A stretch of 32,000 nt of DNA from Ferroglobus placidus DSM 10642 (lineage in GTDB: Archaea > Halobacteriota > Archaeoglobi > Archaeoglobales > Archaeoglobaceae): the NCBI RefSeq assembly GCF_000025505.1, contig NC_013849.1, forward strand, positions 1,290,001 to 1,322,000, in the 5' to 3' direction. The notes under the pieces were generated by a model. It was not told where the DNA came from and made no database searches. It saw nothing but the letters and a program-made list of their open reading frames with translations. Below are positions 12,996 through 30,493 of the stretch, piece after piece. Both the position numbers and the translations under genes were made by a program. The stretch's first letter is position 1; the number at the start of each line of letters is the position of its first letter.

Positions 12996-13667
12996 TTAGT
13001 TTACCAAGTTCACTGCTTTTCCTAAAACCGTCAACGAGATTTTCACGTTCTTCCCTACCCTCTTCGTCTCTACGAGTCCGTCCTCCTCCAGTCCTCTGAG
13101 GTGGTAGCTCATCCTCGCTCTCTGAGCCATGTACTTCTTGTGATCCGTCGTTCTGCCTTCGAGAAGTTCTATCAATTTGTTTATCGACTCGACCTCTCCT
13201 CCGTTCGCCTCGATAACTTTCAGAATTTCGAGCTTGTCTTCGGAAACCTTTTTCATCGGAGGAACCGGGATTTCAATAACTCTTTCAATCCCAACTTCTT
13301 TTCCTTCCTCGTATTTGGGCATCGCGGTATAGATTTTGCTTCCCGAAACCTGCGCAGCTATATATGCGGCGATGGTCAAAGTTTTCGGAGCTTCCGTTAT
13401 GTTGATGTAAACTTCGTTACCCGCCTTTAAGTCGTCTCTAATTGCCTCAAGAACTTTGAGCATCGATTCGAAAACTTCGTATTGATTCACTTCAACCATT
13501 TCAACGTCGATAAGCACCTTTAAAATCTCTTTCAGCTTTTCAGCCACGCTTTTAACGTCTGCGTAGTAAACTAAATACGCTTTGTGTATCGGATAGCCAC
13601 TCGCCTTTATGCTTTCCATCACCTTCTCAGCATCGCTTCCCACGAAGACTACATGCACTACTGCCAT
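12996..13667 (-). CDS. Csa3-like / HFX_2341-like regulator: N-terminal CARF-like Rossmann domain plus C-terminal winged HTH
   Basis: The N-terminus has a beta-strand/Gly pattern (VVHVVFVGSD...KAYLVY...VYINITEAPKTLT) like Csa3/CARF N-domains. The C-terminal part (KLEILKVIEANGGEVESINKLIELL...SYHLRGLEEDGLVETKRVGKNVKISLT) is wHTH-like. The assignment is by recalled pattern, not by search. Confidence 0.5.
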   Translation of the reverse strand: MAVVHVVFVGSDAEKVMESIKASGYPIHKAYLVYYADVKSVAEKLKEILKVLIDVEMVEVNQYEVFESMLKVLEAIRDDLKAGNEVYINITEAPKTLTIAAYIAAQVSGSKIYTAMPKYEEGKEVGIERVIEIPVPPMKKVSEDKLEILKVIEANGGEVESINKLIELLEGRTTDHKKYMAQRARMSYHLRGLEEDGLVETKRVGKNVKISLTVLGKAVNLVN

Positions 13668-13726: not shown

Positions 13727-13750
13727 TTCAATTAGTTGGATAAATCGGTG

Positions 13751-14035
13751 ATGATGTGTCCGCATTGCAAATCGATAAAAACTGTGAAAATGGGCTGTTA
13801 TTACACGAAATCTGGTGAGAGGAGGCAGAGATACAAATGCAAGAGCTGCGGGAGAACTTTCGTTTTGAATCCGATAAAGCCGAGGAATTATCCCGAGGAA
13901 TTTAAGGAGATGGTAGTTAGAGCTGTTGTGAAGGAGGGTGTAGGGATAAGACAAGCGAGCAGAATTTTCAAGCTTTCTCCTAACACTGTGACAGCTTGGG
14001 TAAGAGAATTTTCTAAAAAAAGACCTGAGAAATGA
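13751..14035 (+). CDS. insA: IS1 transposase N-terminal part (InsA-like: CxxC...CxxC zinc finger plus HTH)
   Basis: MMCPHCKS...YKCKSCGRTF is followed by an HTH-like GIRQASRIFKLSPNTVTAWV. The ORF ends at a TGA (14033-14035) just after an A7 run at 14015-14021. Confidence 0.85.
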   Translation: MMCPHCKSIKTVKMGCYYTKSGERRQRYKCKSCGRTFVLNPIKPRNYPEEFKEMVVRAVVKEGVGIRQASRIFKLSPNTVTAWVREFSKKRPEK

Positions 14036-14450
14036 GATTAGATCGGAAAAGCCTGTTATCGAGTTAGATGAAGCTTGGAGTTTTGTTAAGAAAAAGGAAA
14101 ACGAAATCTGGATTTGGATTGCTTTAGAGAGAAATTCCCGAAAAATAATAAGTTATGCAATAGGAGATCGTTCTGTGGATACTTTCAAGAAATTGTGGGA
14201 CGGAATTGGCGATGAAATAAAGCGGAAAGCAATTTTCTACACGGATCGCTGGGACGCTTATAATTTGATTCCTTACAGGCAGAGAATCGTAAGAAGAGGA
14301 GGAACGAACCACGTTGAAAGGTTATTCTTAACTCTGAGAAATGATAATCCGAGATTCGCAAGAAAATCAATCAGATTCTCAAAATCCTCGGAAATGCTCG
14401 AAAATTCTTTTAAATTGTGGATTCATTACTATAATTTATCAACATTATAG
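14004..14450 (+). CDS. insB: IS1 transposase catalytic part (InsB-like DDE), open from 14004 with no start codon of its own; +1 frame relative to insA
   Basis: The frame reads ...ELDEAWSFVKKKENEIWIWIALERNSRKIISYAIGDRS...FYTDRWDAYN...TNHVERLF...SFSKS, colinear with E. coli InsB (EMDEQW...WMTDGWPLY...QRIERHN...SFSKS). The stop TAG lies inside the right inverted repeat. Confidence 0.85.
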   Translation, partial: ENFLKKDLRNEIRSEKPVIELDEAWSFVKKKENEIWIWIALERNSRKIISYAIGDRSVDTFKKLWDGIGDEIKRKAIFYTDRWDAYNLIPYRQRIVRRGGTNHVERLFLTLRNDNPRFARKSIRFSKSSEMLENSFKLWIHYYNLSTL

Positions 14451-28523: not shown

Positions 28524-28857
28524 TTAAAATATCCATGTTTCGAACGCTCTTTTAATGTTTTTTGGTAAAGTAGTAAAAGTGCAACCTATACTTCTATTTT
28601 CTTGTACGCTTTTATGGTTGCCTCGAAAGTTACAAAAAGAGTCAGTTTAAGCTTTCCAAAATTTCTGGACTACTCGAACATTCCGCAACTTTAACGCTGT
28701 TAAATGGGCTGAAAGCTTTCAAATATTTAAAATTTTCCTCGAACACGCCGGGGTTTCATTTTTAACTGTTTCGCTCGGTATGTCGTGTTCGAGAGATGTT
28801 TGTGAGAGAAAGTATTATATACTTCCATTCGACGTAAAATTTTGTTAGAGTATATCC
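28524..28857 (+). promoter_or_regulatory. CRISPR leader, also the divergent promoter region of the ATPase gene
   Basis: A 334-bp AT-rich non-coding region lies upstream of the first repeat in the orientation that puts ATTGAAAG at each repeat's 3' end. TATA-like ATTATATA at about 28814-28821 lies about 40 nt before repeat 1. Confidence 0.6.
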
Positions 28858-30220
28858 CTCGATGAAAAGAGGATTGAAAGTCGTGAAGTATCCCGCCTTC
28901 TTCTTGGGAGGTGATTTAACGAGCTCGATGAAAAGAGGATTGAAAGACATACTCACCACCTCTCACATTCGTGGAGACAATAACCCACTCGATGAAAAGA
29001 GGATTGAAAGCCAATTGGAAATTTCGTTGAAAGTTCGAAAAAGTTTTTACTCGATGAAAAGAGGATTGAAAGTCGCAACCTTGTTCGGTCTGTATCTAAT
29101 CACCCTACCAATCTCGATGAAAAGAGGATTGAAAGGATTATGGCTTCAGATGGGTTTGGAACTACTTTAAGAGTGCTCGATGAAAAGAGGATTGAAAGAA
29201 GCCATAGTATTCAAGCAGGTAACCATGCCTTCCTACCTCGATGAAAAGAGGATTGAAAGTCTTATTTCCCTCCTGTAAACCTCTTCAAAACCTCGTCTGC
29301 TCGATGAAAAGAGGATTGAAAGGCGATTTGGCTACTTTCTTGTAGCCTATCAGCTCGTGAGCTCGATGAAAAGAGGATTGAAAGACCTGATCGTCCGTAC
29401 CATCACAAACGTAATCTCCTGACTTACTCGATGAAAAGAGGATTGAAAGTAGAGATACACTGTTCTCCTTCTTACCCTCTTAACCTTAGGCTCGATGAAA
29501 AGAGGATTGAAAGGTCTATTGTGTCTTTGTTGGTTATCTTCTTGAAGTCTTCCAACTCGATGAAAAGAGGATTGAAAGATATTATCCCTCCAGTGCAGCT
29601 TTTCTTTTTAGATAGTAGGGACTCGATGAAAAGAGGATTGAAAGTTGTCTGTTCCAAATGGAACTTCCAGATCGTCGGCAAAATCTCGATGAAAAGAGGA
29701 TTGAAAGAAGAGAGAGTCTAATCTATGCAGTTATTGTGAATTTATACCTCGATGAAAAGAGGATTGAAAGATCGTAGGGACAGAACCGGGTAGCTTTCGA
29801 AATACTTGGTTGCTCGATGAAAAGAGGATTGAAAGAGAACAGTTGCTGCTGCCGGCTTCTTTTGAGGTAAGAATGGGCTCGATGAAAAGAGGATTGAAAG
29901 TTGGAGGCTTACCGATGCTGTTGGAGCTTTACATAACAGTGTCTCGATGAAAAGAGGATTGAAAGACCTTTTTAAATTCTCTATCCACGTTTGTACTGTA
30001 GGAAACTCGATGAAAAGAGGATTGAAAGTGTTGTAGGCTTCGTTAGGCGTTCTTGCCCTAATTTTGGCCTCGATGAAAAGAGGATTGAAAGCTCATCGCC
30101 CATCCACCTCCTCATAACCAACTCCGCAATTCCTCGATGAAAAGAGGATTGAAAGCTTCGTGTCCAAGTTGTAGAGCCACAACGCTATCCTGTACCTCTC
30201 GATGAAAAGAGGATTGAAAG
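28858..30220 (+). CRISPR. CRISPR array: 22 identical 23-nt repeats (CTCGATGAAAAGAGGATTGAAAG) and 21 unique spacers of 38-43 nt
   Basis: I located every repeat by hand, with starts at 28858, 28924, 28988, 29050, 29113, 29176, 29237, 29300, 29362, 29427, 29491, 29556, 29622, 29685, 29748, 29813, 29878, 29943, 30006, 30069, 30133 and 30198. All copies are identical. The strand was assigned from the 3'-terminal ATTGAAAG tag and the leader position. Confidence 0.97.
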
Positions 30221-30493
30221 TCAAATTCGCTCGAGCAAGTCTCCTATGACAACTCCGATGAGGAAAATAACTGCAAAGTACAGTATCACAAAAAGAATCG
30301 CAAAAAAGCCGACTCCAGCCAGAAATAGGACTGCCGGGTGAGGGAAGATTAGAAAAGATGCTATCGCCAAAATTATTCCGAGTATTATCGAAAATTTTAA
30401 CGCCGCTTTCAAAATACCGAGCAGATCCTCTTTCCCTTTTCTCGAATAACCGTAAATTACGCCGAGGAGGAAGGTTAAAAGTTCCAGAATCAT
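30221..30493 (-). CDS. Small (90 aa) integral membrane protein, about 3 predicted TM helices
   Basis: Three hydrophobic stretches are separated by short charged loops. The start lies 1 nt after the stop of the KaiC-like gene (30495), which suggests coupling. The stop codon directly abuts the last CRISPR repeat. Confidence 0.6.
   Translation of the reverse strand: MILELLTFLLGVIYGYSRKGKEDLLGILKAALKFSIILGIILAIASFLIFPHPAVLFLAGVGFFAILFVILYFAVIFLIGVVIGDLLERI

Follow-up and report, generated by a model that had tools for sequence, protein, structure and literature searches.

The window, a 32,000-nt stretch of Ferroglobus placidus DNA, contains a CRISPR array built on a 23-nt repeat. With a probability of about 0.85, this is one of five dispersed F. 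placidus arrays that carry the same 23-nt repeat and belong to a short-repeat type I-A/III-B family whose members end in AAAGAGGATTGAAAG. The array is probably functional, as one of a dispersed set served in trans. It is an ordinary array, 23 nt being a normal and recurrent repeat length in the Archaeoglobaceae and no defect.

The array, its published record and its leader

An exact-match scan recovered 22 copies of CTCGATGAAAAGAGGATTGAAAG on the + strand, between positions 28858 and 30220 of the window (NC_013849.1:1318858-1320220); this strand defines the orientation of the array, and feature coordinates are those of the window. The copies recur with a period of 61-66 and enclose 21 spacers of 38-43 nt, the same values as those from which the first-pass annotation had called the spacers long. 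All 21 spacers differ from one another and have no 12-mer in common. None of 100 shuffles gave 22 matches to CTCGATGAAAAGAGGATTGAAAG (the shuffle mean was 0.01), and no further copy was found when up to 3 mismatches were allowed. The first and the last repeats are both perfect, in keeping with the earlier remark that the array shows no repeat decay at its ends. The stretch thus has the generic make-up of a CRISPR array, namely at least three near-identical repeats of ~23-55 nt with unique spacers of comparable length between them. A candidate 23rd copy, degenerate and located downstream of the array, was rejected (alignment score 7), and an Rfam search gave no match.

The base preceding the repeat is a C in five copies, a G in seven, an A in six and a T in four, while the base following it is a T in eight, an A in eight, a C in three and a G in three. 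Since unconserved bases flank it on both sides, the conserved unit measures exactly 23 nt, as had been deduced beforehand from the sampling of all four nucleotides at either flank. It had also been envisaged that the 7 nt lying 5' to the repeat might be a conserved, though degenerate, part of it. Within the F. placidus array, all 12 positions upstream of the repeat are unconserved, and in pooled related arrays only a mild A bias is seen at -2/-1.

An alternative reading would make the stretch a coding or structural tandem repeat and no CRISPR array. ORFs of up to 102 aa do cross it (for example at 28862-29170), but they are artefacts of the repeat, in which MKRGLK recurs, and the uniqueness of every spacer, the homology of the leader to those of cas-adjacent arrays and the presence of the same repeat beside cas genes in other genomes all speak against this reading, which has a negligible chance of being right. 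The identification as a CRISPR array, made in the first-pass annotation from the 22 identical repeats, therefore stands. On its trailer side, the array is followed by the gene of an AF0891-family small membrane protein (30221..30493, - strand), given here for context only, the stop codon of which abuts the last repeat. Its product matches F. placidus ADC65681 exactly, and the gene marks both the trailer end of the array and the orthologous locus.

The array and its 23-nt repeat length are already on record, since Table S1 of PMC12195208 lists, at 1318858-1320220, an array of 22 DRs, each of 23 nt, with 21 spacers of 38-43 nt. This entry places the window at NC_013849.1:1290001-1322000, and three proteins encoded in the window are identical to proteins of F. 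placidus DSM 10642. Six CRISPR arrays are listed for NC_013849.1 in the same table, five with the 23-nt repeat and a sixth with a 24-nt repeat. The other four 23-nt arrays are listed at 273660, 676127, 1578276 and 1597286, contain 10, 27, 11 and 19 copies and are 98-100% conserved (PMC12195208). The genome paper also counts 6 CRISPRs (PMC3236036). The present array is thus already catalogued and differs in nothing from the published entry; the consensus printed for it in Table S1 drops one A, which is a typographical error. The same survey bears out the earlier statement that this repeat lies at the short extreme of known lengths: 23 is the lower limit for repeat length in CRISPRFinder, and 23-bp repeats occur in 7 of the 115 archaeal arrays surveyed, five of these being from F. 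placidus (PMC12195208).

Upstream of the array lies a gap of 334 nt (28524-28857) with a GC content of 35%. The CRISPR leader was placed at 28652..28857 (+ strand) on the basis of BLAST identity to the leader of another array, in a Ferroglobus sp. MAG (L028; 80.6% over 232 nt, starting at 28652), and of an alignment (A1) of the leaders of 16 arrays, the F. placidus one included, among which are cas-adjacent arrays and 25-nt arrays from other phyla. About 150-200 nt of leader are conserved across the 16 arrays. L028 was also considered as a syntenic leader end and was rejected, the homology being limited to the leader itself. Four elements, all on the + strand, stand out. The distal box TATTTAAAATTTTCCTCGAACA (28724..28745) consists of near-invariant or invariant columns of the alignment in Archaeoglobaceae, Korarchaeota and Thermoproteota, and a second conserved block, GTTCGAG, occupies 28787-28793. 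A BRE/TATA-like element, GAAAGTATTATATA, lies at 28808..28821, ~37-50 nt upstream of repeat 1; the consensus of this box in the Archaeoglobaceae-type leaders is aAGAAAGnnTTATATA, and it may act as an archaeal promoter element. Finally, the leader-repeat junction motif GTTAGAGTATATCC (28844..28857) abuts repeat 1. In nearly all 16 arrays, the cas-adjacent ones included, the first repeat is directly preceded by GTT(A/C)GAGTATA plus 1-3 nt, and GTTAGAGTATATCC is presumed to be a Cas1-Cas2 integration signal. The array is thus preceded by an AT-rich, conserved leader with both a promoter-like box and a junction motif. A sigma-70 promoter scan was set aside as irrelevant to archaea.

A family of short repeats and its cas genes

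In a scan of one genome per species for pairs of AAAGAGGATTGAAAG copies spaced 40-66 nt apart, 90 stretches matched this shared 15-nt 3' end. According to the consensus derived for each locus, several MAGs of Archaeoglobaceae and of Ferroglobus, as well as other uncultured archaea, contain the exact 23-mer with unconserved flanks; Korarchaeota (Methanodesulfokora), Thermoproteota and Desulfurococcales have versions of 25 nt, lengthened by NT at the 5' end, and Pyrobaculum has the 24-nt form GAATCTCAAAAAGAGGATTGAAAG. A 23-nt variant, CTCAATGAAAAGAGGATTGAAAG, is carried by a different Archaeoglobaceae MAG. By its sequence, the F. placidus repeat can be classed in this 23-25-nt family, the members of which share at least 15 nt at the 3' end and are described by ...GAGGATTGAAAG; it has the handle ATTGAAAG and the core AAAGAGGATTGAAAG and matches exactly. 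The 37-nt repeat of Nitrosocaldus consists of GTTGCAATGGCTAA followed by the 23-mer, so that its 3' 23 nt are identical to the F. placidus repeat. Because the longer repeat contains the shorter one, repeats of this family do become extended or truncated at the 5' end, and such a change in length is a feature of the lineage and no defect of the F. placidus array.

This bears on the proposal of the first-pass annotation that the repeat is a 30-nt Pyrococcus-type repeat deprived of 7 nt at its 5' end, so that Cas6 would have to recognize it in a new way and Cas1-Cas2 would need a different ruler. The two repeats do have the ATTGAAAG 3' end in common, and the Nitrosocaldus repeat shows that long and short forms of one 3' module exist. 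The 3' end had rightly been recognized as the 8-nt handle, which is present in every repeat. It is nevertheless not diagnostic of the Thermococcales family, because it is common to many archaeal repeat families, and the literature describes it in type I-A, I-B and III crRNAs alike. Against truncation, the nearest relatives, in many genomes, are themselves 23-25 nt long and identical to the F. placidus repeat over the last 15-21 nt, and their genomes carry normal type I-A cas genes, Cas6 and Cas1. The Thermococcales pattern is a repeat of ~30 nt with a 5' segment bound by Cas6. In P. furiosus, the repeat has 30 nt, of which Cas6 binds nt 1-10, and it is cut 8 nt from its 3' end to leave the ATTGAAAG handle; the handle and, by prediction, the position of the cut have their equivalents in F. 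placidus, but the 23-nt unit has no counterpart of the bound segment. The 5'-end binding of P. furiosus Cas6, which had been taken as the yardstick, is moreover a 'wrap-around' mode that reviews call an outlier, while recognition close to the cut site is known for the 24-25-nt repeats of Sulfolobus. We consider it very improbable that the repeat arose in the way first proposed. Because its relatives measure 23-25 nt, the apt comparators are the short repeats of crenarchaeal type and not the 30-nt repeat of Pyrococcus.

Several of these relatives have the repeat next to cas genes. In an Archaeoglobaceae MAG (L033), the exact 23-mer has cas1 on one side and a csa3-cas6 pair on the other, with csa5, cas7/csa2 and cas5a alongside; the array there comprises five perfect repeats and three decayed trailer copies. 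The exact repeat is accompanied by csa3 and a Cas6-like ORF at L065 and by cas1 at L044, and a variant with a one-base change stands beside cas4/csa1, cas1, a full Cmr1-6 module and csx1 at L005/L015. Linkage of the repeat to type I-A or cmr genes is therefore found at these loci of relatives, and not at the F. placidus locus. The suggestion that processing and integration must be unusual, or dead, is not supported in view of the L033 arrangement, in which an identical repeat sits between cas6 and cas1. Cas6 of the L033 type combines PF27225 (AF_1859_N) with PF10040 (CRISPR_Cas6) and is only remotely similar in sequence to the Cas6 proteins of solved structure. Homologues of this Cas6 and of the L033 Cas1 are found in Geoglobus, Korarchaeota, Thermoproteota and Desulfurococcales, that is, in lineages that have the repeat family. 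Other loci in the group show the two components apart: three type I-A cassettes with an AF_1859_N cas6 have no array nearby, and five arrays of the family lie beside housekeeping genes. Because array-less cassettes and dispersed arrays are both common in the group, a locally orphan array is the usual layout.

cas genes of F. placidus and turnover of the spacers

About 38 ORFs of the window were scanned against Pfam and NCBIfam. Apart from one CARF/winged-helix protein, they correspond to housekeeping genes, among them those for type III RuBisCO, PurL/Q/S, SMC-ScpAB, AspRS, HisD, a P-type ATPase, a KaiC-like ATPase and FBPase, and the scans gave no bona fide cas gene within the window. The CARF/winged-helix protein (12996-13667, - strand), the sole cas-like item of the window, matches Csa3 only at a sub-cutoff level (TIGR01884; E=4.7e-7; 29 bits, the curated cutoff being 60). 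The array is therefore locally orphan, as had been noted from the 32 kb alone. The possibility then raised, that a standard cas operon lies just outside, did not materialize on the right, where the 10 kb beyond the edge of the window contain no cas gene; in all, the array has no cas gene for 28 kb on its left or for ~11 kb on its right.

What is known of the cas genes of F. placidus comes largely from the literature. The genome has been typed as I-A, with 5 cas genes counted (PMC12195208), and cas genes common to F. placidus and A. fulgidus have been described. Cas10-like and large-subunit proteins of F. placidus figure in the alignments of Makarova 2011, which contain two large-subunit sequences from it, and F. 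placidus has been reported as the sole complete genome with a type VII (Cas14) system. Protein searches limited by a word index, with the L033 proteins as queries, returned no F. placidus protein among 54 matches to Cas6 or among 58 matches to Cas1; with Csa2, none was seen among the best 120 of 727 matches. Given these results and the published count of 5 cas genes, the cognate cas6 and cas1 may be absent, divergent or pseudogenised in F. placidus. The Cas6 search, however, missed even AF1859 of A. fulgidus, the namesake of this Cas6 family, so that the lack of F. placidus matches is weak evidence.

The content of the array was compared with that of close relatives. Three contigs from Ferroglobus MAGs break off within an array built on this 23-mer at the orthologous locus, which is recognizable by an AF0891-like gene, a KaiC-like gene and FBPase. 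All the spacers visible in them differ from those of F. placidus and from one contig to the other. Since these relatives carry wholly different spacers there, the array site has been active recently in the lineage, and a conserved site with turned-over content is what an active array looks like. Identical spacers were found in three assemblies of sequencing runs of the type strain, which are uninformative on turnover because they represent the same strain.

The origin of the spacers had been singled out as a point to check. No protospacer was found when the whole array was compared with phage and plasmid collections, nor when three spacer 24-mers and the repeat were compared with IMG/VR, and comparison of the spacers with the window and with all loci gave just chance 12-15-mers. 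The viruses of the group to which F. placidus belongs are barely known, and missing protospacers are for this reason unsurprising.

These observations can be set against the view that the array is stranded, a fossil in which the five 23-nt arrays merely persist after loss of the matching Cas6 and Cas1-Cas2. The failure of the L033 queries to find Cas6 or Cas1 in F. placidus, the published count of cas genes, the lack of protospacer matches and the identity of the spacers in the three assemblies of the strain would all fit with it. However, the protein search had the limitation just described, and F. placidus has genes for type I and type III large subunits as well as a type VII module. The state of the arrays also argues the other way: 22 out of 22 repeats are perfect here, conservation is similarly high in the four other arrays, the leader and its junction motifs are intact, and the spacers at the locus are wholly different in close Ferroglobus relatives. 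We regard a stranded array as quite unlikely, and the conserved leader and the replacement of spacers in the Ferroglobus MAGs likewise speak against the earlier suggestion that the array may no longer be processed. A functional array, served by cas genes located elsewhere, remains the preferred reading.

Proposed processing and integration, and comparison with known systems

A plausible course of events for such an array can be outlined. The promoter in the leader would direct the synthesis of a + strand pre-crRNA, and, by analogy with published systems, a Cas6 encoded elsewhere would cleave every repeat between G15 and A16, 8 nt short of the 3' end. Folding of the repeat predicts a near-unstructured RNA with a stem of 3 bp, CUC/GAG (-2.6 kcal/mol, z = -1.7), which ends one base before the expected cut. 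This mini-hairpin is without covariation support because the stem is invariant across the family. Cas6 would probably hold the weak CUC...GAG hairpin by the cut, as Sulfolobus Cas6 does on repeats of 24-25 nt. The resulting crRNAs, with the 8-nt 5' handle AUUGAAAG, would be loaded in trans onto complexes of type I-A, of type III or perhaps of type VII that are encoded elsewhere in the genome, and Cas1-Cas2, provided that this module is intact in F. placidus, would insert new spacers at the leader-repeat junction.

Which effector is the main recipient has a bearing on how the array is to be seen. One view holds that it feeds mainly a type III complex or the type VII Cas14-Cas7-Cas5 complex in trans, and it is compatible with the best explanation, not opposed to it. 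Complexes of types III and VII are typically without adaptation genes of their own, and often without their own Cas6; a Cas10-like protein is present in F. placidus, the one-base variant of the repeat flanks the Cmr module at L005/L015, and the handle is one that type III crRNAs share. No effector gene lies near the array, though, and the arrays described in association with type VII have degenerate repeats, whereas those of the present array are perfect: neither an adjacent cas14-cas7-cas5 operon, for which the window and the 10 kb beyond it were searched, nor substituted repeats are found here. Predominant use by one of these complexes is possible, but we would not bet on it; the type VII Cas14 effector of F. 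placidus may draw its guides from the 23-nt arrays.

The length of the spacers varies with that of the repeat. In 23-nt arrays the mean is 41.3 nt (n=232), as compared to 39.3 nt in 25-nt arrays (n=774; Mann-Whitney p=7e-49), and the unit of repeat plus spacer measures ~64 nt in both alike. The CTC of the repeat is equidistant from the leader motif GAGTATA in the two groups, which differ in whether the two intervening bases duplicate with the repeat. In the pooled 23-nt arrays, the last two bases of the spacer are biased towards A (49% and 42% against a background of 26%), a bias that is weaker in the F. placidus array. These three observations hint at a coupled shift in the geometry of integration. 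One might imagine that the 23-nt repeat results from an inward displacement, by 2 nt, of the integration site on the leader side, with Cas1-Cas2(-Cas4/Csa1) measuring the whole unit, an idea that we hold to be tentative and rather unlikely. If the relation is mechanistic, the measuring anchor of such a whole-unit ruler would lie inside the repeat, and repeat and spacer would not be measured separately. Were this true, the natural pairs of 23- and 25-nt arrays, with their homologous leaders and Cas1 proteins, would constitute a ready system for the study of the type I-A integration ruler.

Taken by itself, the F. placidus array matters little: it is published, and short ATTGAAAG-ended repeats served by distant cas genes are a known archaeal pattern. 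On the other hand, F. placidus is a cultured host. Its 23-nt arrays, five in number, are clean, it has a type VII module, and its type I-A gene set seems to be reduced, so that it is a reasonable organism in which to ask which Cas6 and which effectors use the guides of the 23-nt arrays.

Among known short repeats, those of 25 nt, (G/T/A/C)TCTC(G/A)ATG(A/C/T)AAAGAGGATTGAAAG, from Methanodesulfokora Korarchaeota and from Thermoproteota and Desulfurococcales MAGs contain the 23-nt core with 0-2 substitutions. They differ from the F. placidus repeat by two extra conserved bases at the 5' end (NT), but the leaders of these arrays are homologous to that of F. placidus, the unit period is likewise ~64 nt, and the Cas6 (AF_1859_N) and Cas1 families are those of the hosts of the 23-mer. 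The repeat GAATCTCAAAAAGAGGATTGAAAG of Pyrobaculum/Thermoproteaceae, hosts of type I-A/III-B systems (three P. oguniense loci), is identical to it over its last 16 nt, AAAAGAGGATTGAAAG. Both repeats are short, are combined with long spacers and have a predicted CUC...GAG(G) mini-stem before the cut site and a ATTGAAAG handle; the F. placidus repeat is one nt shorter, with its CUC at the extreme 5' end and a loop of 8 nt as against 5 nt in Pyrobaculum, and the leaders are unrelated in sequence. In S. solfataricus, the AB (25-nt) and CD (24-nt) repeats, handled by Cas6-1 and Cas6-3, differ from the F. placidus repeat in the sequence upstream of the handle, and the Cas6 found beside the 23-mer in relatives of F. 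placidus is, in contrast to theirs, of the AF_1859_N type. These Sulfolobus repeats are nevertheless also short and nearly unstructured and end in AUUGAAAG; in 24/25-nt repeats with this ending, Cas6 holds a 3-bp hairpin, and cleavage at its base leaves an 8-nt 5' handle; the arrays of S. solfataricus, like that of F. placidus, are not contiguous with cas genes.

Spacer length and the repeat-spacer unit

Spacers are longer in arrays with a 23-nt repeat, such as that of F. placidus (the 23-mer), than in sister arrays with a 25-nt repeat, which carries two additional 5' bases on the same core: the means are 41.3 nt and 39.3 nt, respectively (p = 7e-49). The 23-nt set comprised the F. placidus array (window 28858-30220, + strand) and those of L017, L063, L022, L005, L015 and L050 (L numbers designate contigs or loci used for comparison), while the 25-nt set comprised L066, L074, L012, L027, L029, L052, L056 and others. 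The unit of repeat plus spacer is about 64 nt in both kinds of array, and the distance from the conserved leader motif GAGTATA to the CTC of the repeat is likewise equal in the two.

Among 232 spacers pooled from 23-nt arrays (window, L017, L022, L063, L015, L050 and others), A occupies position -2 in 49% and position -1 in 42%, against 26% overall; in the window array alone the bias is weak (38% and 29%, respectively). This preference at the final two spacer bases may be a signature of prespacer trimming. The bias is too weak for the repeat to be extended into these two positions.

The trailer end and other genes of the window

In the F. placidus array, nothing separates the last repeat from the AF0891-family gene, which reaches it with its stop codon (window 30220/30221). 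At the orthologous locus of the Ferroglobus MAG contigs L097-L099, a 47-nt trailer lies between the last repeat and that gene. This trailer weakly resembles F. placidus repeat 1 plus spacer 1, with TCGTGA and GAGGTGATTTAA in common, and about 0.15% of random windows score equally well or better; the likeness is probably due to chance.

Elsewhere in the window, a CARF-like/winged-helix protein of 223 aa (12996-13667, - strand; Pfam HFX_2341_N and DUF6293_C) matches Csa3 below threshold (E = 4.7e-7). Its neighbour, an IS1-family transposase (13736-14450, + strand), is divided between two ORFs and is probably a pseudogene.

Published CRISPR counts for the F. placidus genome conflict: 6 in the genome paper and in PMC12195208, 12 in the A. 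profundus paper ("JGI, unpublished") and 1 in the comparative table of the A. neptunius paper.

The 23-mer in other genomes

The identical archaeal 23-mer occurs 26 times, with an Archaeoglobaceae-type leader, on a 3.1-kb contig binned as Thermotogaceae, a bacterial MAG (L022, JAMOOR010000082.1). The contig is most likely misbinned, because its sample series is also that of the Archaeoglobaceae MAG JAMOPJ. In two separate MAGs (L063 and L093), 23-mer arrays adjoin the same purF/inositol-phosphate cytidylyltransferase neighbourhood, so other dispersed arrays of the family also occupy fixed chromosomal sites.

A longer form of the repeat in Nitrosocaldus

The Nitrosocaldus MAG JBKBIE01 contains a 37-nt repeat, GTTGCAATGGCTAACTCGATGAAAAGAGGATTGAAAG, with a period of about 79 (L037, L018, L047, L055 and some 25 further short contigs). 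In the single flank examined (L083) no cas gene was found, and a radical-SAM gene is present there instead. The last 23 nt at the 3' end of this repeat are identical to the F. placidus repeat; thus, different phyla possess the 3' module with or without a 14-nt 5' extension.
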